Source of the DNA: Escherichia coli
Lineage (GTDB): Bacteria > Pseudomonadota > Gammaproteobacteria > Enterobacterales > Enterobacteriaceae
DNA length: 64,000 nt
Reading direction: 5' to 3' (one strand)
NCBI RefSeq assembly: GCF_003334355.1
Contig: NZ_QOWP01000005.1
Below are positions 1 through 50,688 of the stretch, piece by piece. The notes under the pieces were generated by a model, which worked only from the letters and a program-made list of their open reading frames with translations, was not told the DNA's origin and did no database searches. Position 1 is the first letter of the stretch; each line of letters begins with the position of its first letter. A program made the translations under genes and the position numbers.

Positions 1-1330
1 TGGTCAGGCGACCGTTTGCCATAATGCCCATGCTTTCCAGCCAGCGTTCAAACTCCGGTGACGGGCGCAGGTTGAGTAACTGACGCACAGTGGCGGTATC
101 GTGGAATGCGGTGGTCTGGTAGTTGAGCATGATGTCATCACCCAGCGGCATCCCCATGATGTAGTTGCAGCCTGCGGTGGCGAGCAGGATCATCAGGTTT
201 TCGTTGAGGTTCTGGTCAGCGTCAGCGTGGTTGGTATAACAGCAGTCACAGCCCATAGAGATGCCACTCAGCTTGCCCATAAAGTGATCTTCTAAGCCAG
301 CACGGATAATCTGGCGGTCGTTGTAGAGATACTCCGGCCCAATAAAGCCGACCACGGTGTTGACGATAAACGGATCGTAATGACGCGCCAGCCCGTAGTT
401 ACGTGCTTCCATCGTTACCTGGTCTGCGCCGAAGTTAGCGCCAGCGGATAGCGCAGAGCCTTGTCCGGTTTCGAAGTAGAGGCAGTTTTCCCCGGCGATA
501 CGGTTGAACTCCGCGCCCACTGCGCGCGCTTCGTCGAGCATCGCCAGCTCCACGCCAAACTCTTTCAGCCCTTTTTCGCTGCCACAGATACTCTGGAAAA
601 TCAGCCCGCCCGGTGCGCCACGACGGATCGCTTCGATCTGGGTGGTGACGTGCGCCAGTACACAGCCCTGAGTTGGGATGTTGAATTTGTCGATCACGCC
701 ATAGATGGTATCCAACACGCGGCTTAAGTTTTCCACGTCGTCAGTCACCGGGTTAACGCCGATCACCGCATCGCCCACCCCGAAGGAAAGCCCTTCGTAG
801 ATTTGCGCGGCGATACTTTGCACGTCGTCACGGGTGTCATTTGGCTGCAAACGGGCGCTAAAGGTGCCCGGAATACCGATGGTGGTATTGGCCTTTTTGA
901 TTACCGGCATTTTCTTCGCGCCGTAGATCAGGTCCGCGTTGGAGCAAATCTTCGCTACCGCCGCGACCACTTCCGAGGTCAGCCCTTTGCGGGTAAAGGC
1001 AATGTCGTCCACGCTGGTTTCATCGCTCAGCACATACTCACGCAGTTCGCTGATGCTCCAGTTTTTAATCTGGTTGTAGGCCGTTTCGTTAACATCGTCC
1101 TGAATCAGCCGCGTCACGCAGTCATCTTCATAGGCAATCACCGGATTATTGCGGATGTCCGCTACGGTCATTTCCGACAACACCTGCTTTGCCGCCACGC
1201 GCTCCTGTGAGCTTGCCGCTGCGACGCCCGCCAGCACATCCCCCGAACGCAGTTCGTTGGCTTTAGCCAGCACCTCTTTTACATCCTTAAACTGATATAC
1301 ATTGCCGAACAATGTGGTCTTTAGTTTCAT
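1..1330 (-). CDS. eutB: ethanolamine ammonia-lyase large subunit EutB (partial; C-terminal end lies beyond window start)
   Basis: Minus-strand frame beginning MKLKTTLFGNVYQFKDVKEVLAKANE at ~1330 and open to position 1; recognised EutB N-terminus; about 11 nt upstream gap to the eutA stop. Confidence 0.9.
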   Translation of the reverse strand, partial: MKLKTTLFGNVYQFKDVKEVLAKANELRSGDVLAGVAAASSQERVAAKQVLSEMTVADIRNNPVIAYEDDCVTRLIQDDVNETAYNQIKNWSISELREYVLSDETSVDDIAFTRKGLTSEVVAAVAKICSNADLIYGAKKMPVIKKANTTIGIPGTFSARLQPNDTRDDVQSIAAQIYEGLSFGVGDAVIGVNPVTDDVENLSRVLDTIYGVIDKFNIPTQGCVLAHVTTQIEAIRRGAPGGLIFQSICGSEKGLKEFGVELAMLDEARAVGAEFNRIAGENCLYFETGQGSALSAGANFGADQVTMEARNYGLARHYDPFIVNTVVGFIGPEYLYNDRQIIRAGLEDHFMGKLSGISMGCDCCYTNHADADQNLNENLMILLATAGCNYIMGMPLGDDIMLNYQTTAFHDTATVRQLLNLRPSPEFERWLESMGIMANGRLT

Positions 1331-1341
1331 AAGTCGTTCCC

Positions 1342-2745: not shown

Positions 2746-3968
2746 GATTGTGCCTCCGCTTCGGTTTTAGTCGCGGTCGCGTCTTCTTTTGGCACCAGCA
2801 TCATCGCCACGCCAATCGCCGTTACGCCGCCGATCAACTTGCCGACAATCATCGGGAAGATCATGGCGTTCATGTTGGCAGCGGCGAAGCCTAAGTGGTC
2901 GCCCAGGGCGAAAGCAGCGGAAACGGCGAAGGCGCAGTTGATGACTTTGCCGCGGGTATCCATCTGCTTCATCATGCCGAACATCGGGATGTTGTTGGCA
3001 AGCGTTGCCACCATGCCGGCTGCCGCGATGTTGTTCATATTCAGTACTTTACCGACGCTCATCAGCGGTTTTTCAAACCAGCGAGTCAGCAGCAGCACCA
3101 TCGGATACGCCCCTAACAGAACGCAGGAGATAGAACCGATAACTTCAATGGCGCGCATCACCTCACCGGGTTTATCGCCAGGGGCCATAAAGATAGGATC
3201 CAGACCGGGGATCAGTTCCCAGCCAAGCAGGAATTTCACTACCGCAGCGGCAAGACCGAGGGTGATCAATGCAACGAGGAATTTGGCGAAGATCTGGAAG
3301 CCGTTGATCATTTTTTCCGGGATGAATTTCAGCCCCAGCGCCACCAGAATCGCAACAATGATCACCGGGATCATGTTCATCAGGATCAGGGCGAAAGTGA
3401 ATTCCACCGGCTGGCCGTTGATCTGCACACCGGAGTACATAGCAACCAGACCACCAGCGATACAACCAATCGGAATGGTCACAATGCCCGCCAGCACGCC
3501 GAGCGCCAGATAACGACGGTCAGAAGGTTCGATAATGCCGAGCGCCACCGGAATGGAAAACACAATCGTTGGCCCCATCATCGACCCGAGAATTAACCCA
3601 GAGTATAGCCACGCGGCTACGTCGCCGCCCGCCAGCTCTTTGGCGAGGAAGAAGCCGCCCATATCGCACGCCAGCAGTGTTCCGGCGAACATCGATGGGT
3701 TAGCGCCGAGCATTTCGTAAACCGGAATAATTACCGGCCCGAGAACGTGAGCCAGTACCGGTGCCAGCGCGGTCATACCGACCATCGCCAGGCCCAGTGC
3801 GCCCATTGCCATAAAGCCTTCTTCGAACTGACCGCCTGATCCTTCGATACTTTTACCGAACTTACCGAGGAAACGAGCAGAACCGCCGAACTGCGACAGG
3901 ATCCTGTCTACGGCAGCTATCAGCATAAAGAACATCATGATGTACATGATGATTTCGTTAATTCCCAT
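2742..3968 (-). CDS. eutH: ethanolamine permease/facilitator EutH
   Basis: 408-aa highly hydrophobic ORF; overlaps eutA start by 4 nt; recognised as EutH. Confidence 0.93.
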   Translation of the reverse strand: MGINEIIMYIMMFFMLIAAVDRILSQFGGSARFLGKFGKSIEGSGGQFEEGFMAMGALGLAMVGMTALAPVLAHVLGPVIIPVYEMLGANPSMFAGTLLACDMGGFFLAKELAGGDVAAWLYSGLILGSMMGPTIVFSIPVALGIIEPSDRRYLALGVLAGIVTIPIGCIAGGLVAMYSGVQINGQPVEFTFALILMNMIPVIIVAILVALGLKFIPEKMINGFQIFAKFLVALITLGLAAAVVKFLLGWELIPGLDPIFMAPGDKPGEVMRAIEVIGSISCVLLGAYPMVLLLTRWFEKPLMSVGKVLNMNNIAAAGMVATLANNIPMFGMMKQMDTRGKVINCAFAVSAAFALGDHLGFAAANMNAMIFPMIVGKLIGGVTAIGVAMMLVPKEDATATKTEAEAQS

Positions 3969-7911: not shown

Positions 7912-8017
7912 ACCCGCCTCCGTGGCGTATTTCAGGTAAAAGCTCCCCCTACCCTCCGCAGAAGGTAAAATGAAAAAGGAGAGAGCGTGACGCCCGAATC
8001 GACGTCACACAGGGTGA

Positions 8018-8311
8018 TTACAGGTTGCTGCTATCGCCTTTCAGGCCGATCGGGAAGACTTCTTCCAGGTCGCCGTGCGGACGCGGGATAACGTGTACAG
8101 ATACCAGCTCGCCGATACGCTGTGCCGCTGCGGCACCTGCATCGATCGCGGCTTTACAGGCTGCAACATCACCACGAACCATGGCAGTACACAGGCCGCC
8201 GCCAATCTGCTTAACACCAACCAGCTTGACGCGCGCAGCTTTCACCATCGCGTCAGAAGCCTCAATCAGTGCAACCAGGCCCCGGGTTTCGATCATTCCT
8301 AATGCTTCCAT
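8018..8311 (-). CDS. eutM: microcompartment shell protein EutM (BMC-H domain)
   Basis: ORF track 8018..8353 trimmed to [18 protein letters not shown] (97 aa); canonical BMC shell protein. Confidence 0.93.
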
Positions 8312-8349
8312 TGTGCTTTCCTCTTTATCAGGGTCCAGAACGGGACCGT

Positions 8350-9366
8350 TCATTCAACCAGTGTTTGTAAACTGCTTTCGCGGTTCACTTCTGTCTGACG
8401 CGGCACAGCTGCCACCAGCGCCAGCTCGATAATTTCCTGCACGCTACAACCACGAGAGAGATCGTGCATCGGCGCGGCAAGTCCTTGTATCAGTGGCCCG
8501 ACGGCACGATATCCGCCGAGTCGTTGTGCGATTTTGTAACCAATATTTCCGGCTTCCAGCGACGGAAAAACCATCACATTGGCCTTGCCCTGTAGCGGGC
8601 TGGCAGGCGCTTTTTGCGCCGCCACTTCCGGCACGAAGGCGGCGTCAAACTGTAACTCGCCATCCACCACCAGCTTTGGTGCGCGCTCACGGACGATTTC
8701 TGTCGCCTGCTGGACGTTAGCAACACAGGGGTGACGGGCGCTACCATTGCTGGAAAACGACAGCATCGCCACGCGCGGCTCTTCTCCGGTGATGGCGCGC
8801 CAGGTTTCGGCACTGGCAAGCGCGATATCCGCCAGCTGCGCCGCCGTCGGCTGTGGCACCACGCTGCAATCGGCAAAGCCCAACGCCGGGCCGCTGTACT
8901 GTGGCAACATCAGGAAAATGGAAGAGAGCGTTTTACAGCCTGGCTGCAAGCCGATAATGCGTAATCCGGCACGCAGCACATTTGCCGTGGAAGAGAGGTT
9001 GCCCGCGATACAGACATCCGCTTTACCGGCGCTGACCATTGCTGCGGCGAACATCAGAGGGTCGGTAAGTTTTTCCAGCGCATCCGGCGGCGTTTTTTCG
9101 CCCGCGCGGGCCAGCCAGCGATGAGCAAATTCTTCCCGCATTGCGAGGTTGCCATGCGGATCAATCACCTGTAGCCCGTCCATCGCCACGCCGTGACTGA
9201 GCGCAAACTGACGAAGTTCAAACGGATTGGCGACCAGAATGGGCGTTGCCAGACCTTGTTGATGTAAATATTGCGCGGCTTTCAGCACACGTTGGTCTAA
9301 CGCATCCGGAAAAACCACTCTGGCGGGCGCTCGCAACGCCAGTTCACGACAACGTTCAATAATCAT
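8350..9366 (-). CDS. eutD: phosphotransacetylase EutD
   Basis: 338-aa ORF; Pta-like sequence; overlaps eutM region by 4 nt in the track. Confidence 0.93.
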
Positions 9367-37060: not shown

Positions 37061-37678
37061 ATGAACCGCTTTGTGGTGGCCGAACCACTGTGGTGTACAG
37101 GATGTAATACCTGTCTCGCTGCCTGTTCGGACGTGCATAAAACGCAAGGTTTACAGCAACACCCGCGCCTGGCCCTGGCGAAGACGTCAACAATCACTGC
37201 CCCTGTCGTGTGTCATCACTGTGAGGAAGCCCCTTGCCTGCAGGTCTGCCCGGTCAATGCCATCTCTCAGAGGGATGATGCGATCCAACTCAACGAAAGC
37301 CTCTGTATTGGCTGCAAGCTTTGCGCCGTGGTCTGCCCATTTGGCGCAATCAGCGCTTCAGGAAGCCGTCCGGTGAATGCCCATGCGCAATATGTTTTTC
37401 AGGCTGAAGGCTCACTCAAAAACGGCGAAGAAAACGTGCTGCCCCAACATGCGTTGCTGCGCTGGGAACCGGGTGTCCAGACCGTCGCGGTGAAATGCGA
37501 CCTGTGTGATTTCTTGCCAGAAGGTCCGGCCTGCGTTCGCGCTTGCCCGAATCAGGCGTTACGGCTGATCACCGACGATAGCCTGCAACGTCAGATGAAA
37601 GAAAAACAGCGCCTTGCCGCAAGCTGGTTTGCCAATGGCGGGGAGGATCCCCTTTCCCTCACTCAGGAGCAACGCTAA
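37061..37678 (+). CDS. hyfA: hydrogenase-4 ferredoxin-type subunit HyfA
   Basis: ORF track trimmed to MNRFVVAEPLWCTGCNTC (205 aa); multiple 4Fe-4S Cys motifs. Confidence 0.92.
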   Translation: MNRFVVAEPLWCTGCNTCLAACSDVHKTQGLQQHPRLALAKTSTITAPVVCHHCEEAPCLQVCPVNAISQRDDAIQLNESLCIGCKLCAVVCPFGAISASGSRPVNAHAQYVFQAEGSLKNGEENVLPQHALLRWEPGVQTVAVKCDLCDFLPEGPACVRACPNQALRLITDDSLQRQMKEKQRLAASWFANGGEDPLSLTQEQR

Positions 37679-39696
37679 TGGATGCCCTGCAATTATTAAC
37701 CTGGTCGCTGATCCTCTATCTGTTTGCCAGTCTGGCTTCGCTGTTTTTACTCGGTCTGGACAGACTGGCTATTAAGCTTTCCGGCATCACATCGCTGGTG
37801 GGCGGCGTGATTGGCATCATCAGCGGAATTACGCAATTACATGCTGGTGTAACTTTAGTCGCCCATTTTGCCACCCCTTTTGACTTTGCCGATTTAACCC
37901 TGCGAATGGATAGCCTCTCGGCATTTATGGTGCTGGTTATCTCCTTGCTGGTGGTGGTTTGTTCGCTCTATTCATTGACTTATATGCGCGAATACGAGGG
38001 CAAAGGCGCGGCGGCGATGGGCTTCTTTATGAATCTTTTCATCGCATCGATGGTTGCCCTGCTGGTGATGGACAACGCTTTTTGGTTCATCGTGCTGTTT
38101 GAAATGATGTCGCTGTCTTCCTGGTTTCTGGTCATTGCCAGGCAGGATAAAACGTCGATCAACGCTGGCATGCTCTACTTTTTTATCGCCCACGCCGGAT
38201 CGGTGCTGATAATGATCGCCTTCTTGCTGATGGGGCGCGAAAGCGGCAGCCTCGATTTTGCCAGTTTCCGCACGCTTTCACTTTCTCCGGGGCTGGCGTC
38301 GGCGGTGTTCCTGCTGGCCTTTTTCGGTTTTGGCGCGAAAGCCGGGATGATGCCGTTGCACAGCTGGTTGCCGCGCGCTCACCCTGCCGCACCATCGCAC
38401 GCTTCAGCGTTGATGTCTGGCGTAATGGTCAAAATCGGTATTTTCGGCATCCTGAAAGTGGCGATGGATCTGCTGGCGCAAACGGGTTTGCCGCTGTGGT
38501 GGGGCATTCTGGTGATGGCGATCGGCGCAATCTCCGCGCTCCTGGGCGTGCTGTATGCGCTGGCGGAACAGGATATCAAACGGCTACTGGCCTGGAGTAC
38601 CGTCGAAAACGTCGGCATTATTTTGCTGGCGGTCGGTGTGGCGATGGTCGGTCTGTCACTGCACGACCCGCTGCTCACCGTGGTTGGACTGCTCGGCGCA
38701 CTGTTTCATCTGCTCAACCATGCGCTGTTCAAAGGGCTGCTATTTCTCGGCGCGGGCGCGATTATTTCGCGTTTGCATACCCACGACATGGAAAAAATGG
38801 GGGCACTGGCGAAACGGATGCCGTGGACAGCCGCAGCATGCCTGATTGGTTGCCTGGCGATATCAGCCCTTCCTCCGCTGAATGGTTTTATCAGCGAATG
38901 GTACACCTGGCAGTCGCTGTTCTCACTAAGTCGTGTGGAAGCCGTAGCGCTACAACTTGCGGGTCCTATTGCTATGGTAATGCTGGCAGTCACTGGTGGG
39001 CTGGCAGTAATGTGCTTCGTAAAAATGTACGGTATTACTTTCTGTGGTGCGCCGCGCAGTACACACGCTGAAGAGGCACAGGAAGTGCCAAATACGATGA
39101 TCGTCGCCATGCTACTGCTCGCGGCACTCTGCGTATTAATTGCGCTTAGTGCCAGTTGGCTGGCACCGAAGATAATGCATATTGCCCATGCGTTTACCGA
39201 TACCCCTCCCGTCACTGTCGCCAGCGGAATAGCACTTGTACCCGGCACGTTTCATACACGGGTCACTCCTTCATTACTGTTGCTGTTACTACTGGCGATG
39301 CCTTTGCTGCCTGGCCTTTACTGGCTGTGGTGTCGTTCGCGCCGCGCAGCGTTTCGTCGCACAGGAGATGCCTGGGCATGCGGCTACAGCTGGGAAAATG
39401 CGATGGCCCCGTCAGGCAATGGCGTGATGCAGCCGCTGCGTGTGGTCTTTTCTGCGCTATTTCGTCTACGACAACAGCTCGACCCTACGCTGAGGCTAAA
39501 TAAAGGTCTTGCGCACGTCACCGCCAGGGCTCAGAGCACAGAACCCTTCTGGGATGAGCGGGTGATCCGCCCCATCGTGAGCGCCACCCAACGGCTGGCC
39601 AAAGAAATACAGCATCTGCAAAGCGGCGACTTTCGTCTCTATTGCCTGTATGTGGTCGCCGCACTGGTTGTGCTGCTAATCGCTATTGCCGTCTAA
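37678..39696 (+). CDS. hyfB: hydrogenase-4 membrane subunit HyfB (NuoL/Mrp antiporter-like)
   Basis: 672-aa polytopic ORF. Confidence 0.93.
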   Translation: MDALQLLTWSLILYLFASLASLFLLGLDRLAIKLSGITSLVGGVIGIISGITQLHAGVTLVAHFATPFDFADLTLRMDSLSAFMVLVISLLVVVCSLYSLTYMREYEGKGAAAMGFFMNLFIASMVALLVMDNAFWFIVLFEMMSLSSWFLVIARQDKTSINAGMLYFFIAHAGSVLIMIAFLLMGRESGSLDFASFRTLSLSPGLASAVFLLAFFGFGAKAGMMPLHSWLPRAHPAAPSHASALMSGVMVKIGIFGILKVAMDLLAQTGLPLWWGILVMAIGAISALLGVLYALAEQDIKRLLAWSTVENVGIILLAVGVAMVGLSLHDPLLTVVGLLGALFHLLNHALFKGLLFLGAGAIISRLHTHDMEKMGALAKRMPWTAAACLIGCLAISALPPLNGFISEWYTWQSLFSLSRVEAVALQLAGPIAMVMLAVTGGLAVMCFVKMYGITFCGAPRSTHAEEAQEVPNTMIVAMLLLAALCVLIALSASWLAPKIMHIAHAFTDTPPVTVASGIALVPGTFHTRVTPSLLLLLLLAMPLLPGLYWLWCRSRRAAFRRTGDAWACGYSWENAMAPSGNGVMQPLRVVFSALFRLRQQLDPTLRLNKGLAHVTARAQSTEPFWDERVIRPIVSATQRLAKEIQHLQSGDFRLYCLYVVAALVVLLIAIAV

Positions 39697-39706
39697 GGAA
39701 ATCACC

Positions 39707-40653
39707 ATGAGACAAACTCTTTGCGACGGATATCTGGTCATTTTTGCGTTAGCACAGGCCGTGATTCTGCTGATGCTAACCCCACTTTTTACGGGTATTT
39801 CCCGGCAGATACGCGCGCGTATGCACTCCCGCCGCGGGCCGGAGATCTGGCAGGATTATCGCGATATCCACAAACTGTTTAAACGCCAGGAAGTTGCGCC
39901 TATATCTTCAGGTCTGATGTTCCGCCTGATGCCGTGGGTATTAATCAGCAGCATGCTGGTGCTGGCGATGGCCCTACCACTATTTATTACCGTTTCCCTT
40001 TTGCGGGCGGCGGCGATCTGATCACCCTTATCTATCTTCTTGCCCTGTTTCGTTTTTTCTTTGCTCTTTCAGGGCTGGATACCGGAAGCCCGTTTGCGGG
40101 AGTCGGTGCCAGTCGCGAGTTGACGCTCGGCATTCTGGTCGAACCCATGCTCATTCTCTCACTGCTGGTATTGGCGCTGATAGCGGATTCCACGCATATC
40201 GAGATGATCAGCAATACGCTGGCGATGGGCTGGAACTCGCCGCTAACCACCGTACTGGCGTTACTGGCCTGTGGTTTTGCCTGCTTCATAGAGATGGGAA
40301 AAATTCCCTTTGATGTTGCTGAAGCAGAACAGGAATTACAGGAAGGCCCGCTGACCGAATATTCCGGTGCCGGGCTGGCGTTGGCGAAATGGGGACTGGG
40401 GCTGAAACAGGTCGTGATGGCAGCACTGTTTGTGGCCCTGTTTCTGCCCTTTGGGCGCGCGCAAGAACTTTCTCTCACCTGCCTGCTGACTTCACTTGTC
40501 GTTACGCTGCTCAAGGTTTTGCTGATTTTTGTACTGGCTTCAATCGCAGAAAACACGCTGGCACGCGGGCGTTTTTTACTCATTCACCATGTGACCTGGC
40601 TTGGCTTCAGCCTTGCTGCGCTTGCATGGGTCTTCTGGTTAACCGGTCTGTAA
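39707..40653 (+). pseudogene. hyfC: hydrogenase-4 membrane subunit HyfC (NuoH/HycD-like), disrupted by a -1 frameshift at ~39996-40002
   Basis: Two consecutive ORFs in different frames (39686..40021 and 39934..40653) together cover a HyfC-like protein; span is 947 nt, one short of the 948 expected for 315 aa; shift lies in a CCCTTTT tract. Confidence 0.8.
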
Positions 40654-40669
40654 GGAGCACTGACGGAAT

Positions 40670-42108
40670 ATGGAAAATCTTGCTCTGACGACGTTAATGC
40701 TGCCTTTTATCGGCGCACTGGTCGTTTCGTTTTCGCCACAACGTCGGGCCGCCGAATGGGGGTTTTGTTCGCCGCACTGACCACGCTGTGCATGTTGTCG
40801 CTGATCTCCGCGTTTTATCAGGCCGATAAAGTTGCCGTCACGTTGACGTTGGTCAACGTGGGGGATGTGGCATTGTTTGGCCTGGTCATTGATCGCGTGA
40901 GTACGCTGATTCTGTTTGTGGTGGTGTTTCTCGGTTTGCTGGTCACGATCTACTCCACGGGTTATCTGACGGATAAAAATCGCGAACACCCGCATAACGG
41001 CACGAATCGTTATTACGCATTTTTGCTGGTGTTTATCGGCGCGATGGCGGGACTGGTACTCTCCTCGACGCTGCTCGGTCAGTTGTTGTTTTTTGAAATT
41101 ACGGGCGGCTGCTCCTGGGCGTTGATCAGTTATTACCAGAGCGATAAAGCGCAGCGTTCAGCACTAAAAGCGTTACTTATCACTCATATCGGCTCGTTGG
41201 GGTTGTATCTTGCCGCCGCCACGCTGTTTTTGCAGACCGGAACGTTTGCGCTTAGCGCGATGAGCGAGTTACACGGCGACGCACGTTATCTGGTTTATGG
41301 CGGCATCCTGTTTGCCGCGTGGGGGAAATCGGCCCAGCTACCGATGCAAGCGTGGCTACCGGACGCAATGGAAGCGCCAACACCGATCAGCGCCTATCTC
41401 CACGCCGCATCGATGGTGAAAGTGGGCGTTTACATTTTTGCCCGCGCCATTATCGACGGCGGCAATATCCCGCATGTGATTGGCGGCGTTGGCATGGTCA
41501 TGGCCCTGGTCACCATTCTTTATGGATTTCTGATGTATTTACCACAGCAGGATATGAAGCGGTTGCTGGCCTGGTCGACCATCACTCAACTTGGCTGGAT
41601 GTTCTTCGGCTTGTCGCTCTCCATCTTCGGCTCGCGGCTGGCGCTGGAGGGTAGCATCGCCTACATCGTCAACCACGCGTTCGCTAAAAGCCTGTTTTTC
41701 CTTGTAGCAGGTGCGCTGAGTTACAGCTGCGGCACGCGCTTGTTGCCGCGTCTGCGTGGCGTATTGCACACCCTGCCGTTGCCTGGCGTGGGTTTCTGCG
41801 TGGCAGCGCTGGCAATTACCGGCGTGCCGCCGTTCAACGGCTTCTTCAGTAAATTCCCGCTGTTTGCTGCCGGTTTTGCGTTGTCAGTGGAGTACTGGAT
41901 CCTGCTGCCCGCCATGATTCTGCTGATGATTGAATCGGTCGCCAGTTTCGCCTGGTTTATTCGCTGGTTTGGTCGCGTCGTGCCTGGCAAACCGAGCGAG
42001 GCCGTCGCCGATGCCGCACCGCTGCCAGGGTCAATGCGCCTGGTGTTGATTGTACTGATTGTGATGTCGCTGATTTCCAGCGTAATCGCCGCGACCTGGT
42101 TGCAGTAA
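40670..42108 (+). pseudogene. hyfD: hydrogenase-4 membrane subunit HyfD (NuoL/M-like), disrupted by a -1 frameshift at ~40758-40762
   Basis: ATG at 40670 with RBS reads MENLALTTLMLPFIGALVVSFSPQRRAAEW then hits a stop; the remainder continues in another frame (track ORF 40756..42108); span is 1439 nt, one short of 1440 for 479 aa; shift lies in a G5 run. Confidence 0.8.
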
Positions 42109-42119
42109 GGAGATGATGA

Positions 42120-42770
42120 ATGACCGGTTCTATGATCGTAAATAATCTGGCGGGACTGATGATGCTGACATCACTGTTTGTGATTAGCGTCAAAAGCTAT
42201 CGCCTGTCATGCGGATTTTACGCCTGCCAGTCACTGGTGCTGGTGTCTATTTTCGCCACCCTCTCGTGCCTGTTCGCCGCAGAGCAACTGCTGATCTGGT
42301 CCGCCAGCGCCTTTATCACCAAAGTGCTGCTGGTACCGTTAATCATGACTTACGCTGCACGAAATATTCCCCAGAACATCCCGGAAAAAGCGTTATTCGG
42401 TCCGGCAATGATGGCACTGCTCGCGGCGTTAATTGTCCTGCTTTGCGCATTTGTCGTTCAGCCCGTGAAGCTACCGATGGCTACCGGGCTGAAACCGGCG
42501 CTGGCGGTAGCGTTAGGTCATTTTCTGCTTGGCCTGCTGTGCATTGTCAGCCAGCGCAATATCCTGCGGCAAATTTTTGGTTACTGCCTGATGGAAAACG
42601 GCTCCCATCTGGTGCTGGCGCTTCTTGCCTGGCGAGCACCGGAACTGGTGGAAATAGGTATCGCTACCGACGCCATCTTCGCCGTCATTGTGATGGTGTT
42701 ACTGGCAAGAAAAATATGGCGTACCCACGGCACGCTGGACGTGAACAACTTGACCGCGCTGAAGGGATAA
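42120..42770 (+). CDS. hyfE: hydrogenase-4 membrane subunit HyfE
   Basis: 216-aa hydrophobic ORF. Confidence 0.92.
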
Positions 42771-42774
42771 TGAG

Positions 42775-44355
42775 ATGAGTTATTCTGTGATGTTCGCTTT
42801 ACTCCTGCTCACGCCGCTGCTTTTTTCGCTGCTCTGTTTTGCCTGCCGGAAACGGAGACTTTCTGCGACTCGCACGGTGACCGTATTACATAGCTTAGGG
42901 ATCACACTGCTGCTGATTCTGGCACTCTGGGTGGTCCAAACTGCCGCTGATGCAGGAGAAATATTCGCTGCGGGACTGTGGCTTCATATTGATGGTCTGG
43001 GCGGTTTGTTCCTCGCCATTCTTGGTGTGATTGGCTTTCTCACCGGTATTTACTCGATTGGCTACATGCGTCATGAAGTGGCACACGGCGAGCTTTCACC
43101 CGTTACGCTGTGCGATTACTACGGTTTCTTCCATCTGTTTTTGTTCACCATGCTGCTGGTTGTTACCAGCAATAACCTGATTGTGATGTGGGCGGCGATC
43201 GAAGCCACCACCTTAAGCTCGGCGTTTCTGGTAGGCATTTACGGTCAGCGTTCATCGCTGGAAGCTGCATGGAAGTACATCATTATTTGTACTGTTGGTG
43301 TCGCTTTTGGTCTGTTCGGTACCGTGCTGGTATACGCCAACGCCGCCAGCGTTATGCCGCAGGCAGAAATGGCGATATTCTGGAGCGAGGTTCTTAAGCA
43401 ATCGTCCTTGCTTGACCCAACATTAATGCTGTTGGCCTTTGTGTTTTTGCTAATTGGCTTTGGTACCAAAACCGGGCTATTTCCCATGCACGCCTGGCTG
43501 CCGGATGCTCACAGTGAAGCGCCGAGTCCGGTCAGCGCCCTGCTCTCCGCCGTATTGCTGAACTGCGCGCTGTTGGTGCTGATTCGCTATTACATCATTA
43601 TTTGCCAAGCCATCGGCAGCGATTTCCCCAACCGGTTGTTGCTCATCTTCGGCATGTTGTCGGTTGCCGTGGCGGCATTTTTCATTCTGGTACAGCGGGA
43701 CATTAAGCGTCTGCTGGCGTACTCCAGCGTGGAGAACATGGGGCTGGTCGCGGTGGCGCTAGGCATTGGCGGGCCGCTGGGAATTTTTGCCGCGCTGCTG
43801 CACATCTTAAACCACAGTCTGGCAAAAACGCTGCTGTTCTGCGGTTCCGGCAATGTACTGCTCAAGTACGGCACGCGCGATCTCAACGTCGTCTGTGGGA
43901 TGCTCAAAATCATGCCATTTACCGCCGTGCTGTTTGGCGGCGGTGCGCTGGCGCTGGCAGGGATGCCGCCCTTCAACATTTTTCTTAGCGAATTTATGAC
44001 CATTACCGCCGGACTGGCACGTAATCACCTGCTGATTATCGTCCTGCTGTTATTGCTGTTAACGCTGGTGCTGGCGGGCCTGGTACGGATGGCAGCGCGG
44101 GTGTTAATGGCGAAACCGCCGCAGGCCGTTAACCGGGGTGATCTCGGCTGGTTGACCACCTCGCCAATGGTGATTCTGCTGGTCATGATGCTGGCGATGG
44201 GAACGCATATTCCACAACCTGTCATCAGGATCCTGGCGGGCGCTTCCACTATAGTCCTCTCAGGGACGCACGACCTGCCTGCACAACGTAGCACCTGGCA
44301 TGATTTTTTGCCTTCAGGCACCGCATCTGTTTCGGAGAAACACAGTGAACGTTAA
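42775..44355 (+). CDS. hyfF: hydrogenase-4 membrane subunit HyfF (NuoN/M-like)
   Basis: 526-aa polytopic ORF. Confidence 0.92.
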
Positions 44356-46060
44356 TTCATCGTCAAATCGTGGCGAAGCGATTCTCGCCGCCCTGAAAAC
44401 GCAGTTCCCCGGCGCGGTGCTGGATGAAGAGCGACAAACGCCTGAACAGGTCACCATTACGGTGAAAATCAATCTGCTGCCTGACGTTGTACATTATCTT
44501 TATTATCAACATGATGGCTGGCTTCCGGTCCTGTTTGGCAACGACGAGCGGACACTTAACGGTCATTACGCGGTTTATTATGCCCTTTCTATGGAAGGGG
44601 CCGAAAAATGCTGGATCGTAGTGAAGGCACTGGTCGATGCCGACAGTCGGGAGTTTCCGTCAGTCACACCGCGCGTCCCTGCCGCGGTCTGGGGCGAGCG
44701 AGAAATTCGCGATATGTACGGGCTGATTCCGGTTGGCCTGCCGGATCAGCGTCGCCTGGTGTTGCCCGATGACTGGCCGGAAGATATGCATCCGCTGCGC
44801 AAAGATGCGATGGATTATCGACTGCGCCCTGAACCGACGACTGATTCCGAAACGTATCCGTTTATCAATGAGGGCAACAGCGATGCGCAGGTGATCCCTG
44901 TCGGCCCGCTGCATATCACCTCCGATGAACCGGGTCACTTCCGCTTGTTTGTGGATGGCGAGCAAATTGTCGATGCTGATTACCGCCTGTTTTATGTCCA
45001 TCGCGGCATGGAGAAACTGGCAGAAACGCGGATGGGCTACAACGAAGTGACCTTCTTATCAGACCGCGTGTGTGGGATTTGCGGTTTTGCCCACAGTGTG
45101 GCCTATACCAACTCGGTTGAAAATGCACTGGGGATTGAGGTGCCGCAACGAGCGCATACCATTCGCTCGATTCTGCTGGAAGTCGAACGGCTACACAGTC
45201 ATTTGCTCAACCTTGGCCTCTCCTGCCATTTTGTTGGTTTTGATACCGGCTTTATGCAATTTTTCCGCGTGCGGGAAAAGTCGATGACGATGGCGGAATT
45301 GCTGACCGGGTCGCGTAAAACCTACGGTCTGAATCTGATTGGTGGTGTTCGCCGCGATATTCTCAAAGAGCAACGTCTGCAAACGCTGAAACTGGTGCGC
45401 GAGATGCGCGCCGACGTGTCGGAGCTGGTAGAGATGCTGCTTGCTACGCCGAATATGGAACAACGCACTCAGGGCATTGGCATTCTCGACCGACAAATCG
45501 CCCGTGATTATAGCCCTGTAGGGCCGCTGATCCGCGGCAGTGGTTTTGCCCGTGATTTGCGCTTTGATCACCCCTACGCCGACTACGGCAATATTCCAAA
45601 AACACTGTTTACCTTCACCGGCGGCGATGTTTTCTCCCGCGTGATGGTCCGTGTCAAAGAGACGTTTGATTCGCTGGCAATGCTGGAATTTGCCCTCGAC
45701 AACATGCCGGATACCCCGCTGCTGACCGAAGGCTTTAGCTATAAACCTCACGCATTCGCGCTGGGCTTTGTTGAAGCGCCACGCGGTGAAGACGTGCACT
45801 GGAGCATGCTCGGTGATAACCAAAAATTGTTCCGCTGGCGCTGTCGTGCCGCCACCTACGCCAACTGGCCAGTGCTGCGTTACATGCTACGCGGCAATAC
45901 CGTTTCTGACGCACCGCTGATTATCGGTAGCCTTGATCCCTGCTACTCCTGTACCGACCGTGTGACGCTGGTAGATGTGCGCAAGCGCCAGTCAAAAACC
46001 GTGCCGTATAAAGAGATCGAACGCTACGGCATTGATCGTAACCGTTCGCCGCTGAAGTAA
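44345..46060 (+). CDS. hyfG: hydrogenase-4 large (catalytic [NiFe]) subunit HyfG
   Basis: Track ORF 44300..46060; start placed at GTG preceded by GGAG ([11 protein letters not shown]); exact start uncertain; C-terminal DPCYSCTDR NiFe-ligand motif. Confidence 0.85.
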
Positions 46061-46069
46061 GGACAGAAG

Positions 46070-46615
46070 ATGCTGAAGTTACTGAAAACTATTATGCGCG
46101 CCGGAACCGCGACGGTGAAATATCCCTTCGCGCCACTGGAGGTCAGCCCAGGCTTTCGCGGGAAACCGGACCTGATGCCCAGCCAATGTATTGCCTGCGG
46201 TGCCTGCGCCTGTGCTTGTCCGGCAAATGCGCTGACTATCCAGACCGACGACCAGCAAAATTCGCGCACCTGGCAGCTCTATCTGGGGCGTTGTATTTAC
46301 TGCGGACGTTGTGAAGAAGTGTGCCCGACCAGAGCCATCCAGCTTACCAATAACTTTGAACTGACCGTCACCAATAAAGCCGATCTCTATACCCGCGCGA
46401 CGTTCCATCTACAACGTTGCAGCCGTTGCGAACGCCCGTTTGCCCCGCAAAAAACCGTCGCACTGGCTGCTGAATTGTTGGCACAGCAACAAAATGCGCC
46501 ACAAAACCGCGAAATGTTGCGGGCGCAAGCGAGCGTCTGCCCGGAGTGCAAACAACGCGCGACGCTGATCAACGACGATACAGATGTACCGCTGGTGGCT
46601 AAGGAGCAGCTATGA
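46070..46615 (+). CDS. hyfH: hydrogenase-4 Fe-S subunit HyfH
   Basis: 181-aa ORF with two CxxCxxCxxxCP motifs. Confidence 0.92.
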
Positions 46616-47370
46616 GTCCAGTGCTTACACAACATGTCAGCCAGCCCATCACGCTGGATGAGCAAACGCAAAAGATGAAGCGGCATTTGCTACAGGATAT
46701 CCGTCGCTCGGCTTACGTTTATCGCGTCGATTGCGGCGGCTGCAACGCCTGTGAAATCGAAATTTTTGCCGCCATCACACCCGTATTCGACGCAGAACGT
46801 TTTGGCATTAAGGTTGTTTCATCACCGCGTCACGCCGATATTTTGTTATTTACTGGCGCAGTCACCCGGGCGATGCGTATGCCTGCACTTCGGGCGTATG
46901 AGTCTGCCCCCGATCATAAAATTTGTGTTTCCTACGGCGCGTGCGGTGTCGGCGGCGGTATTTTCCACGATCTCTACAGCGTCTGGGGCGGTAGCGACAC
47001 CATTGTCCCCATTGATGTTTGGATCCCCGGCAGCCCGCCAACACCGGCCGCCACCATTCACGGTTTCGCCGTGGCGCTCGGTTTGCTGCAACGGAAGATT
47101 CACGCGGTGGATTATCGCGATCCCACCGGGGTGACTATGCAACCGTTGTGGCCGCAGATCCCGCCATCACAGCGTATCGCCATTGAGCGAGAAGCGCGGC
47201 GGCTGGCGGGCTATCGTCAGGGGCGAGAAATTTGCGATCGGCTCCTGCGCCATTTAAGCGACGATCCTACAGGAAATCGGGTTAACACCTGGTTGCGCGA
47301 TGCCGACGATCCACGTCTCAATAGTATCGTTCAGCAACTCTTTCGCGTACTCCGGGGGTTACATGACTGA
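46612..47370 (+). CDS. hyfI: hydrogenase-4 small subunit HyfI (NuoB-like)
   Basis: 252-aa ORF; CGGCNAC motif. Confidence 0.92.
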
Positions 47371-47776
47371 AGAGTGCGGGGAAATTGTTTTCTGGACGCT
47401 GCGAAAAAAGTTTGTCGCCAGTAGCGACGAGATGCCGGAACACAGCTCTCAGGTAATGTATTACTCGCTGGCTATCGGTCATCACGTTGGCGTGATTGAT
47501 TGTCTGAATGTCGCCTTCCCCTGCCCACTGACGGAATACGAAGATTGGCTTGCACTGGTCGAAGAGGAGCAAGCCCGACGTAAGATGCTGGGGGTGATGA
47601 CTTTTGGTGAGATTGTTATTGACGCCAGCCACACCGCCTTGTTGACCCGGGCATTCGCGCCACTGGCGGATGACGCGACGTCTGTGTGGCAGGCGCGTAG
47701 CATTCAATTCATTCATCTGTTGGATGAAATTGTGCAGGAACCGGCCATCTATCTGATGGCCAGAAAAATTACGTGA
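47363..47776 (+). CDS. hyfJ: hydrogenase-4 component HyfJ (HycH-like maturation/processing protein)
   Basis: ORF track trimmed to [11 protein letters not shown] (137 aa); overlaps hyfI stop. Confidence 0.88.
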
Positions 47777-47805
47777 GAAGGATTTCTCATTAATAAGGAC
47801 TGTTG

Positions 47806-49818
47806 ATGGCTATGTCAGACGAGGCGATGTTTGCCCCGCCGCAAGGAATAACAATTGAAGCGGTAAACGGAATGCTCGCGGAGCGGTTAGCGCAGAAACA
47901 CGGTAAGGCGTCTTTATTACGCGCCTTCATCCCGCTGCCGCCGCCGTTCAGCCCGGTACAACTTATTGAACTGCATGTTCTCAAAAGCAACTTCTATTAC
48001 CGCTACCATGATGATGGCAGCGATGTGACGGCAACAACAGAGTATCAGGGCGAGATGGTCGATTATTCGCGTCACGCCGTCCTTCTCGGCAGTAGTGGAA
48101 TGGCGGAGCTACGCTTTATTCGCACCCACGGCAGTCGTTTTACTCCCCAGGATTGCACACTGTTTAACTGGCTGGCGCGGATAATCACCCCGGTTCTGCA
48201 ATCATGGCTCAATGATGAAGAACAGCAGGTGGCGCTGCGTTTGCTGGAGAAAGATCGCGATCATCATCGGGTACTGGTTGATATTACTAATGCAGTGCTG
48301 TCACATCTTGATCTCGACGATCTGATCGCTGACGTCGCTCGTGAGATCCATCATTTTTTCGGTCTGGCTTCAGTCAGTATGGTACTGGGCGATCATCGAA
48401 AGAACGAGAAGTTTAGCCTGTGGTGCAGCGATCTTTCTGCCTCACATTGTGCGTGTCTGCCACGCAATATGCCTGGCGACAGTGTATTGCTGACACAAAC
48501 GCTACAAACCCGACAACCGACCTTGACGCACCGTGCAGACGATCTGTTTCTCTGGCAACGCGACCCGTTATTACTCTTACTTGCATCTAACGGCTGCGAA
48601 TCTGCGCTCCTTATACCGCTTACCTTTGGCAACCATACACCGGGTGCATTGTTGCTGGCGCATACCTCTTCCACTCTCTTTAGTGAGGAAAACTGCCAGC
48701 TACTACAACACATAGCCGATCGCATCGCTATTGCCGTTGGCAATGCCGATGCCTGGCGTAGCATGACCGATTTGCAGGAAAGTTTGCAGCAAGAAAACCA
48801 CCAGCTTAGCGAGCAGCTCCTTTCGAATCTGGGCGTCGGTGACATTATCTATCAAAGCCAGGCAATGGAAGACCTGCTCCAGCAGGTAGATATTGTGGCG
48901 AAGAGCGACAGTACAGTGTTGATTTGTGGTGAAACCGGAACCGGCAAAGAGGTGATCGCCAGAGCGATCCATCAACTTAGCCCGCGACACGACAAGCCGC
49001 TGGTCAAAATCAACTGCGCTGCCATCCCCGCCAGTCTTCTGGAAAGTGAGTTATTCGGTCATGACAAAGGGGCGTTTACTGGTGCGATTAATACCCATCG
49101 TGGTCGTTTTGAAATTGCCGATGGCGGCACGTTGTTTCTCGATGAAATTGGCGATCTGCCGTTAGAACTTCAGCCTAAACTGCTGCGCGTATTGCAGGAA
49201 CGGGAGATTGAGCGTCTCGGCGGGAGTAGAACGATCCCGGTGAATGTCAGAGTCATTGCCGCCACCAACCGTGATTTGTGGCAAATGGTTGAAGATCGCC
49301 AGTTTCGCAGCGATCTCTTTTATCGCCTGAATGTCTTCCCACTGGAATTGCCGCCGCTACGCGACCGTCCGGAAGATATCCCTCTTTTAGCAAAGCATTT
49401 CACGCAAAAAATGGCGCGCCATATGAATCGTTCAATTGACGCCATCCCGACCGAGGCGCTACGCCAGTTGATGTCGTGGGACTGGCCGGGCAACGTGCGC
49501 GAGCTGGAAAACGTGATTGAGCGAGCGGTACTGCTGACTCGCGGTAACAGTCTGAATTTACATCTTAATGTCCGACAAAGCCGTTTACTGCCGACGCTAA
49601 ATGAAGATTCAGCGCTTCGCAGTTCAATGGCGCAGTTGCTGCACCCGACGACGCCAGAGAATGACGAAGAAGAACGTCAGCGCATTGTTCAGGTATTGCG
49701 AGAAACCAATGGCATTGTTGCCGGGCCCCGTGGCGCGGCGACACGATTAGGGATGAAGCGCACCACGCTGCTGTCACGAATGCAGCGTCTGGGGATCTCG
49801 GTTCGCGAGGTGTTGTAA
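47806..49818 (+). CDS. hyfR: sigma-54-dependent transcriptional activator HyfR (FhlA-like)
   Basis: ORF with GAF-like N-terminus, AAA+ domain ([14 protein letters not shown]) and C-terminal HTH. Confidence 0.92.
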
Positions 49819-49839
49819 TCTGCTTTTGCAGGAGTATGC

Positions 49840-50688
49840 ATGAGCAACAAACTCTCTTTCGACTTGCAGTTGAGCGCCAGAAAAGCGGCAATCGCTGAAC
49901 GGATTGCCGCCCATAAAATTGCCCGCAGTAAAGTGTCGGTCTTTTTAATGGCGATGTCCGCTGGCGTGTTTATGGCGATCGGATTTACTTTTTACCTTTC
50001 CGTTATCGCCGATGCCCCGTCTTCACAGGCATTAACCCATCTGGTGGGCGGCCTTTGCTTTACACTCGGCTTTATTTTGCTGGCGGTTTGCGGCACCAGC
50101 CTGTTCACCTCGTCGGTAATGACGGTGATGGCAAAAAGTCGGGGCGTTATTAGTTGGCGAACTTGGCTGATTAACGCACTTCTGGTGGCCTGCGGTAATC
50201 TGGCAGGTATTGCCTGTTTCAGTTTGTTAATCTGGTTTTCCGGGCTGGTGATGAGTGAAAACGCGATGTGGGGAGTCGCGGTTTTACACTGCGCCGAGGG
50301 CAAAATGCATCATACATTTACTGAATCTGTCAGCCTCGGCATTATGTGCAATCTGATGGTTTGCCTGGCGCTTTGGATGAGTTATTGCGGGCGTTCGTTA
50401 TGCGACAAAATCGTCGCCATGATTTTGCCCATCACCCTGTTTGTCGCCAGTGGCTTTGAGCACTGTATCGCCAATTTGTTTGTGATTCCGTTCGCCATTG
50501 CCATTCGCCATTTCGCCCCTCCCCCCTTCTGGCAACTGGCGCACAGTAGCGCAGACAATTTTCCGGCACTGACGGTAAGCCATTTTATTACCGCCAATCT
50601 GCTCCCGGTGATGCTGGGTAATATTATCGGCGGTGCAGTGCTGGTGAGTATGTGTTATCGGGCTATTTATTTACGTCAGGAATCCTGA
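49840..50688 (+). CDS. focB: formate channel FocB (FNT family)
   Basis: 282-aa polytopic ORF. Confidence 0.92.
   Translation: MSNKLSFDLQLSARKAAIAERIAAHKIARSKVSVFLMAMSAGVFMAIGFTFYLSVIADAPSSQALTHLVGGLCFTLGFILLAVCGTSLFTSSVMTVMAKSRGVISWRTWLINALLVACGNLAGIACFSLLIWFSGLVMSENAMWGVAVLHCAEGKMHHTFTESVSLGIMCNLMVCLALWMSYCGRSLCDKIVAMILPITLFVASGFEHCIANLFVIPFAIAIRHFAPPPFWQLAHSSADNFPALTVSHFITANLLPVMLGNIIGGAVLVSMCYRAIYLRQES

Follow-up and report, generated by a model that had tools for sequence, protein, structure and literature searches.

Hydrogenase 4 in Escherichia coli

The hydrogenase-4 (Hyd-4) operon of Escherichia coli, hyfABCDEFGHIJR-focB, is unevenly distributed in the species. As a whole it is absent from the B2, F and G lineages (Touchon et al. 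2009, PMC2617782; PMC6896753), and hyfD is missing from 1,131 and present in 4,295 of the E. coli genomes used in this work (5,426, all complete). The E. coli hyf genes are poorly expressed and come without a maturation protease gene (PMC7384014, PMC7654741), features that, together with the loss in B2/F/G, fit a weak selection for keeping the operon. In Pectobacterium, the mutant of its formate hydrogenlyase-2 (FHL-2) system lacking hyfDEF keeps its formate-dependent H2 production, which is abolished in the mutant lacking hyfBCDEF (PMC7384014). Here we describe the hyfD locus in a stretch of 64,000 nucleotides of E. coli DNA (contig NZ_QOWP01000005.1 of assembly GCF_003334355.1; the whole stretch is called the window hereafter), where a run of six G has become a run of five. 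This five-G form is very probably a genuine and inherited loss-of-function allele of single origin, carried by a hydrogenase-4 operon in decay.

The closest described counterpart is the hyfD gene of K-12 MG1655 (b2484, 479 aa), which has the same locus, operon order, start codon, ribosome-binding site (RBS) and stop as the window. The K-12 gene keeps six G and an intact open reading frame (ORF) of 1440 nt, whereas the window has five G and two reading frames of 36 and 450 codons. The elements concerned are the following:

37061 to 50688, plus strand: hyfABCDEFGHIJR-focB operon, with all genes besides hyfC and hyfD at full length in the window
40670 to 42108, plus strand: hyfD pseudogene, hydrogenase-4 membrane subunit D, a NuoL/MrpA-like antiporter subunit; 1439 nt against 1440 expected
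40758 to 40762, plus strand: run of five G (six in intact alleles), site of the single-base deletion, at codons 30/31 as placed by alignment
40670 to 40780, plus strand: ORF1, truncated, 36 codons, made of 30 native residues (the first transmembrane helix), GFCSPH and a TGA
40756 to 42108, plus strand: ORF2, ATG-initiated, 450 codons that correspond to HyfD residues 31-479, taken from the open reading frame list

A single-base deletion in hyfD

Alignment of the window with the 1440 nt of K-12 hyfD gave 17 single-nucleotide polymorphisms (SNPs) and a single gap (98.75% nucleotide identity), and this gap falls inside the G-run, which reads GAATGGGGGGTTTTG (six G) in K-12 and GAATGGGGGTTTTG (five G) in the window. 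Translation in the zero frame from the ATG at 40670, preceded by GTAAGGAGC as RBS, yields MENLALTTLMLPFIGALVVSFSPQRRAAEW, followed by GFCSPH and a TGA at 40778-40780, and the remainder of HyfD (GVLFAALTTLCMLSL...) is encoded in the -1 frame up to the stop at 42106-42108. An earlier note, made from the letters of this stretch and its reading frames, had already pointed out the RBS-preceded ATG, the early TGA with the rest of the protein in another frame, the span one nucleotide short of a full gene, and a G-run that would need six G, all of which the comparison with K-12 bears out. The same note had located the shift 36 codons into the gene, a figure that corresponds to the length of the truncated ORF, the lesion itself being at codons 30/31. 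Residues 3-22 of ORF1 have a mean Kyte-Doolittle hydropathy of 1.7. Moreover, and not mentioned in the note, the deletion gives the downstream frame an ATG at 40756 to open with (gaATGGGGGTT, read as M-G-V-L-F), so that the two ORFs share 25 nt and the ORF1 stop lies 22 nt 3' of this ATG.

The HyfD family is described by the NCBIfam equivalog profile NF005097, with 480 positions and a curated cut-off of 430 bits. The repaired translation of 479 aa matches the profile over its full length (810 bits, positions 1-480), whereas in the window the match is split at position 31, with ORF1 covering positions 1-32 and ORF2 positions 31-480 (774.5 bits), which indicates that the six-G form is the canonical one for the family. 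No single uninterrupted HyfD reading frame exists in the window, and since the frame is broken at codon 30/31, the locus has to be regarded as a hyfD pseudogene and not as a hyfD gene. Its neighbourhood is the usual one, with hyfC, hyfD and hyfE in the same order as in K-12 and in E. coli PSS-12.

Frequency and origin of the five-G allele

Both alleles were counted with probes of 31-33 nt, in which each 28-mer megablast seed spans the G-run. The five-G form was found in 998 of the 5,426 genomes (about 18%, or 23% of the hyf-bearing ones) and the six-G form in 2,846. Among the five-G carriers we find BL21 and ATCC 8739, the latter both as its reference genome and as a genome sequenced again separately. 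The region 40600-42200 of the window is 100% identical to PSS-12 (NZ_AP027697.1), and the Prokaryotic Genome Annotation Pipeline (PGAP) labels both hyfC and hyfD as 'frameshifted' in PSS-12, ATCC 8739 and BL21. Over 62.6 kb of collinear sequence, the window and PSS-12 differ by 20 SNPs and not a single indel, despite about 234 homopolymer runs of at least 5 bases, and hyfC and hyfD are the sole genes annotated as frameshifted in the corresponding 64 kb of PSS-12.

The five-G allele goes with an A at position 40776, 14 nt from the G-run, where K-12 has a G. A four-gamete test between the G-run and this SNP showed agreement in about 997 + 2,840 genomes and discordance in 6, five of them combining six G with the A and one, E686, combining five G with the G. 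A closer look at the discordant genomes shows that 2017.17.01CC and TUM13936 have K-12-like haplotypes that merely share A40776; that O178:H19 equals strain 120899, which carries the five-G run and a 208-nt deletion in hyfD (del208), except for the extra G, and is still frameshifted; and that SZQ1 has six G on the five-G haplotype with its hyfD still broken by another one-base deletion, at nt 434 (del1@434). The fifth genome, FCI56 (locus L011, NZ_CM172715.1, hyfD at 7921-9360), combines the five-G-linked haplotype (flanking sites A40697, A40776, G40800 and A40872) with a run of six G and an intact hyfD, and represents either a surviving haplotype that predates the deletion or a genuine revertant from five to six G. 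On the other hand, E686 is an independent five-G event on an unrelated haplotype. Altogether, the length of the G-run has changed at most about four times among about 3,850 genomes.

The haplotype around the deletion was followed in 11 carriers of the main five-G lineage, chosen for their diversity and not at random, together with the window. The first 450 nt of hyfD differ by 0-1 SNP among them, whereas in hyfB and in hyfC the distance is 15-22 SNPs. In the comparison between the window and strain M6, the deletion is embedded in a block common to phylogroup-A-type and B1-type backgrounds:

40540 to 41174, plus strand: haplotype block of 635 nt without SNPs, carrying the deletion, window versus strain M6

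In this block, 0 SNPs were found where 6.2-10.4 were expected (P(0) = 0.002 to 3e-5), the operons being otherwise about 1-1.6% diverged, and K-12 differs from it at 6 sites. Six G are found on all diverged haplotypes, whereas the five-G form of the main lineage is confined to this one block. The linkage with the SNP at 40776 and the sharing of a SNP-free block by diverged operons indicate one ancient origin followed by spread through recombination. In this regard, the 998 carriers, the linkage and the common 635-nt block are those of a pseudogene shared by descent.

Further lesions and signs of relaxed selection

The neighbouring gene carries a lesion of the same kind:

39707 to 40653, plus strand: hyfC pseudogene, a HycD/NuoH-like membrane subunit, 947 nt against 948, with a deletion from four to three C at 39996-39998

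A companion frameshift in hyfC had been advanced by the earlier note, and is present as such. The two hits were described there as independent, a view that the genomes do not sustain, as both are inherited and sequential, with a wider hyfD lesion (998 genomes) and a nested hyfC lesion. The three-C allele of hyfC occurs in 306 complete genomes and the four-C allele in 3,297. Among the sampled carriers, the three-C form was seen only in five-G genomes, and strain 120899 has five G with an intact hyfC; the rarer hyfC lesion, its restriction to five-G genomes in the sample and the case of 120899 indicate that the hyfD hit is the older one. As to the decay of hydrogenase 4 in this strain that the note also contemplated, the decay is supported by the further lesions and the excess of nonsynonymous changes described below, and what falls is its being particular to the strain.

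All of the 11 sampled main-lineage carriers have one or more further hyf lesions. The hyfC deletion (del1@290) is shared by the window, PSS-12, ATCC 8739, BL21, F11 and MSB1_9D, with an additional +1 in hyfG in MSB1_9D and an additional hyfD Q479* in BL21 and F11. Strain 120899 has the 208-nt deletion inside hyfD; O121:H19 adds to del208 the hyfD del1@434, the hyfB del1@591 and a 3-nt deletion in hyfC; and M6 and TW10590 carry hyfB del1@591 and hyfD del1@434, as does PSS-15, which also has hyfC Q61*. The most eroded operon is that of OkiPb01679, with frameshifts in hyfB and hyfH (-1), hyfC W298*, hyfD W477* and an internal stop in hyfR.

Some of these alleles are common in the species, and the following three are absent from the window. 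The hyfD del208 (window 41426-41633) was found in 472 genomes. The hyfD del1@434 (K-12 nt 434, window about 41102), which converts ATTACAGG/ATTACGGG into ATTAGGG and is not a homopolymer change, was found in 353. Both, seen among loci L004, L006, L007 and L013-L015, combine variously with the five-G run, indicating recombination among pseudogene alleles. The hyfB del1@591 (K-12 nt 591, window about 38268; CAGTTTCCGC to CAGTTTCGC) reaches 1,263 of the 5,426 genomes, more than the hyfD five-G allele itself, and appears at loci L006, L008, L009, L013-L015 and L017, both with and without hyfD lesions (2017.17.01CC has an intact hyfD). As a proxy for the 208-nt deletion we considered the annotation 'hydrogenase 4 subunit D' that PGAP gives with no gene symbol, and dropped it because six-G genomes carry this label too. 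A separate observation concerns hyfH (46070-46615), which has 546 nt in the window and K-12; in ATCC 8739, BL21 and the B1-type strains it is shortened to 540 nt by the in-frame loss of 6 nt at nt 131, and in FCI56 to 543 nt by the loss of 3 nt at the same site, so that nt 131 looks like a small indel hotspot.

The constraint acting on the operon was assessed with rare variants, defined as those with 3 or fewer carriers and confined to one lineage group, which were compared with the Fisher test. The five-G lineage has 49 nonsynonymous and 6 nonsense against 43 synonymous variants, and the other lineages 54 nonsynonymous and 0 nonsense against 144 synonymous. In this small and non-random sample with deeper comparison lineages, the ratio of nonsynonymous plus stop to synonymous changes (N:S) is therefore elevated on the five-G side (55:43 versus 54:144; odds ratio (OR) 3.4, p = 1.9e-6). 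The difference is seen for hyfD alone (13:9 versus 4:22, p = 0.002) and persists when hyfC and hyfD are excluded (OR 3.0, p = 5e-4). Secondary lesions and a higher N:S are what an inherited pseudogene is expected to accumulate, and the direction of the change agrees with a relaxation of constraint over the whole operon.

Alternative explanations

The anti-Shine-Dalgarno (anti-SD) pairing at ATG 40756 is -2.5 kcal/mol, the median of the 1,060 plus-strand ATGs of the window, and the twelve authentic starts of the hyf operon reach -5.1 to -9.3 kcal/mol. No Shine-Dalgarno (SD) sequence was thus found for this ATG, where pairing stays at background level, and for this reason ORF2 is most likely untranslated. 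The zero-frame codons at the G-run, GAA TGG GGG TTT TGT, contain no X_XXY_YYZ slippery heptamer, as only the Gly-tRNA in the P site can re-pair and the A site, which would have to pass from TTT to GTT, cannot. Stimulators were not found at the G-run either: there is no upstream SD-like sequence (-2.5 kcal/mol) and no downstream structure, the 88 nt of RNA at 40763-40850 folding with a minimum free energy of -17.4, where shuffled sequences average -21.3 (z = +1.29, i.e., less stable). The downstream frame is not conserved across carriers, many of which break it further by del208 or del1@434. A programmed -1 frameshift was accordingly rejected for the lack of heptamer, stimulators and a conserved downstream frame, and independent initiation at ATG 40756 was rejected for its background anti-SD pairing; termination-reinitiation at the same ATG finds no positive support in the sequence.

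The two adjoining homopolymer lesions could recall the classic indel signature of long-read sequencing, with six G miscounted as five, possibly in a systematic way, as the earlier note had contemplated. The probability of such an artefact is negligible, as the same allele was obtained in 998 complete genomes by many laboratories, over many years and on many platforms, keeps its linkage to the SNP 14 nt from it with only 6 genomes as exceptions, and sits in 62.6 kb that show no indel against PSS-12 and no further frameshifted gene in its annotation. Neither an irreproducible lesion nor an indel excess at other runs was encountered, the idea of a systematic error is refuted, and the two adjacent frameshifts can be taken as trustworthy sequence for which resequencing is unnecessary. 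A phase-variable contingency switch, in which slipped-strand mispairing at the G-run turns hyfD on and off, would account for five and six G being both common in the species, for six G on the five-G-linked haplotype of O178:H19, SZQ1 and FCI56, and for five G on the unrelated haplotype of E686. We give this option hardly any credit: run length is linked almost perfectly to the flanking SNPs, which is not the behaviour of a contingency locus, two of the three genomes with six G on the five-G haplotype are frameshifted by other lesions and hence have no function to switch, and known homopolymeric switching tracts are longer than 5-6 G, usually with 7-8 or more residues. The handful of length changes counted above among some 3,850 genomes rules out a contingency switch.

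A functional rescue of the broken gene, either by -1 frameshifting on G_GGG (site GCCGAATGGGGGTTTTGTTCG) or as a split protein (a 36-aa peptide with the first transmembrane helix and a 450-aa polypeptide) made through termination-reinitiation at ATG 40756, is very unlikely on the same data. It is true that a -1 slip of the P-site tRNA-Gly on TGG_GGG would recreate the wild-type W-G-V-L-F, making a low level of full-length HyfD possible, which speaks against a complete loss of function; that the deletion sets ATG 40756 in the reading frame of ORF2, with 25 nt shared by the two ORFs; and that the allele persists in about 1,000 genomes, with the other hyf genes intact in the window. Against this stand the absence of heptamer and SD-like stimulator, the less stable downstream RNA and the background pairing at ATG 40756, and also the fate of ORF2 in the descendants, which is further broken by del208, del1@434 or W477*. 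Such a free gain of disabling lesions, along with the relaxed N:S of hyfD, makes it unlikely that ORF2 does useful work. A different possibility is that the loss was adaptive, i.e., that the frameshift was positively selected, for example because it sheds the ion-translocating HyfDEF module, energetically expensive or deleterious as this may be, and that selection spread the block into several backgrounds. The long SNP-free block on operons 1-1.6% diverged and the 23% share of the allele among hyf-bearing genomes would suit this idea, as would the several independent inactivating hyf alleles that are common in the species and the deletion of the operon in B2/F/G (PMC2617782); moreover, the removal of hyfDEF in Pectobacterium slightly raised the H2 output and the levels of HyfG (PMC7384014). 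However, no selection is needed for a block of such length, which recombination routinely produces in E. coli, the N:S relaxed over the whole operon and the scattered, differing second hits resemble neutral decay, and an operon that laboratory cultures hardly express should cost little (PMC7384014, PMC7654741), which leaves adaptive loss as an improbable explanation, if less so than a rescue.

Proposed path of decay and its consequences

Under the preferred reading, an inherited allele of single origin in a decaying operon, one G would have been lost once from a run of six in an ancestor, with a shift of frame past codon 30. Translation begun at the authentic ATG would end after 36 codons with the first transmembrane helix only, leaving the remaining 449 codons without an SD of their own. 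The segment of about 0.6 kb bearing the deletion would then have moved onto different hyf backgrounds by homologous recombination, and the loss of HyfD, added to the poor expression of hyf, would have relaxed purifying selection on the operon. Sublineages would have gained different second hits, that of the window, shared with E. coli C/ATCC 8739 and B/BL21, being the loss of one C in hyfC, which would remove the NuoH/HycD-like subunit of the membrane arm.

Other points, besides the possible slip at the G-run, weigh against this reading. The ten remaining hyf genes are full length in the window, where decay amounts to two one-nucleotide lesions. By analogy with Pectobacterium, the hyfD lesion alone need not abolish FHL-2 catalysis, the hyfC lesion being probably the more damaging one. 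As to the N:S comparison, the comparison lineages are deeper and their private variants have been purged for longer, the heavily decayed OkiPb01679 supplies many of the variants, and the 11 carriers were picked for diversity.

With the same analogy in mind, the hyfD lesion by itself would be expected to cost the putative ion-translocating extension and not catalysis, and the hyfC frameshift should also disable the core membrane anchor. The long untranslated stretches left by both lesions may in addition be polar on hyfE-focB. From the sequence we infer that this strain makes no functional HyfD and has a non-functional Hyd-4/FHL-2. The source strain would thus be best treated, like BL21 and ATCC 8739, as genetically Hyd-4-negative in the modelling or engineering of hydrogen metabolism.

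HyfG and other differences between strains

A by-product of these comparisons concerns a difference found in hyfG between the window and the laboratory strains:

45500 to 45547, plus strand: segment of 48 nt (16 codons) of hyfG, kept in the window and missing from K-12 MG1655, BL21 and ATCC 8739; it lies within hyfG, 44345-46060 (571 aa)

A 10-nt direct repeat, GCCCGTGATT, flanks the segment and gives its loss the signature of a repeat-mediated deletion. The HyfG of 571 aa aligns without gaps with HycE of the formate hydrogenlyase-1 (FHL-1) structure 7z0s (7z0s_E; HycE segment IARDFSNVGPMVRASGH), and the deleted part contains the motif GPxxR(G/A)SG, whose conservation extends to Pyrococcus MbhL and to NuoD/49-kDa/NDUFS2 of complex I, the mitochondrial one included. 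The deleted allele is present in 2,113 complete genomes, among them the K-12 derivatives DH1, BW25113 and XL1-Blue, and 2,072, such as O157:H7 with hyfA-J all intact, carry the full-length one. About half of natural E. coli therefore keep 16 HyfG residues, family-invariant motif included, that are missing in the K-12 reference.

In this line, Finney et al. obtained no Hyd-4 activity from 15 promoter- and maturation-engineered K-12 strains and pointed to 'additional, unknown, biosynthetic problems' (PMC7654741). Judging by the conserved motif it has lost, the HyfG of K-12 may be defective, which would be a possible cause of the activity having gone undetected for decades; we found no mention of the HyfG deletion as a cause of the silent Hyd-4 in the searchable literature. 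BL21 (B) and ATCC 8739 (C) combine the hyfC and hyfD frameshifts with the 16-codon hyfG deletion, and K-12 has intact hyfC and hyfD with the same hyfG deletion. Fully intact operons do occur, e.g., in O157:H7 PV15-279 and TUM13936. A broader and frankly tentative idea, which we consider possible and somewhat unlikely, is that mosaic erosion of hyf extends over the species, that no standard laboratory E. coli among those sampled has an intact operon, and that the silence of Hyd-4/FHL-2 is largely genetic. If so, FHL-2 activity would appear in the strains with intact operons (O157:H7 PV15-279, TUM13936), or in a K-12 given back its 48 nt. For the hydrogenase field this by-product may outweigh the hyfD finding, as the puzzle of the silent Hyd-4 becomes a simple repair experiment.

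Away from the operon, the first 1.3 kb of the window (1-1341) are not collinear with PSS-12, which has an insertion sequence IS1 and then murI after eutA, and about 81 nt of eutH present in the window (about 3169-3241) are missing from PSS-12, whose eutH has 1146 nt. Of the two, it is the window that looks normally arranged.

Comparison with known systems

Genes annotated as 'hyfD, frameshifted' in ATCC 8739 (ECOLC_RS06405), BL21 (SR36_RS12145) and PSS-12 (AABK13_RS20705) carry a lesion identical to that of the window. The hyfD span is 1439 nt in ATCC 8739, PSS-12 and the window, and is annotated as 1436 nt in BL21 owing to its extra terminal stop (Q479*). All three strains share the 947-nt frameshifted hyfC of the window, whereas ATCC 8739 and BL21 also carry the 48-nt hyfG and 6-nt hyfH deletions, both absent from the window. 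The hyfD lesion is ordinary in kind and already recorded as a RefSeq 'frameshifted' pseudogene in hundreds of genomes. In the searchable literature, which does not cover subscription-only papers, no work describing these hyf alleles, their single origin or the mosaic decay was found, and only the absence of the whole operon in B2/F/G is reported.

At the level of the nucleotide sequence, the five-G site resembles programmed -1 sites such as those of dnaX (A_AAA_AAG) and IS1 insAB' in having a homopolymer at the junction of two overlapping frames, from which a slip of -1 would yield the whole product, but unlike them it has no tandem-slippery heptamer, SD stimulator, downstream structure or conserved downstream frame. 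The FHL-2 mutants of Pectobacterium atrosepticum (Finney et al. 2019, PMC7384014) were clean deletions made in an active and well-expressed system of another species, where H2 production disappears once the entire membrane arm, HyfC included, is lost; the lesions of the window are instead frameshifts that may be polar. With the B2/F/G lineages, the window would share the lack of Hyd-4, and both belong to a picture of a dispensable hyf, lost repeatedly within the species; there, however, the hyf genes are gone, while here the operon is present and eroded by point lesions. Altogether, the loss of hyf in E. coli proceeds through point erosion in addition to deletion, with common inactivating alleles of hyfB, hyfC and hyfD (three in this last gene) shuffled among operons by recombination.

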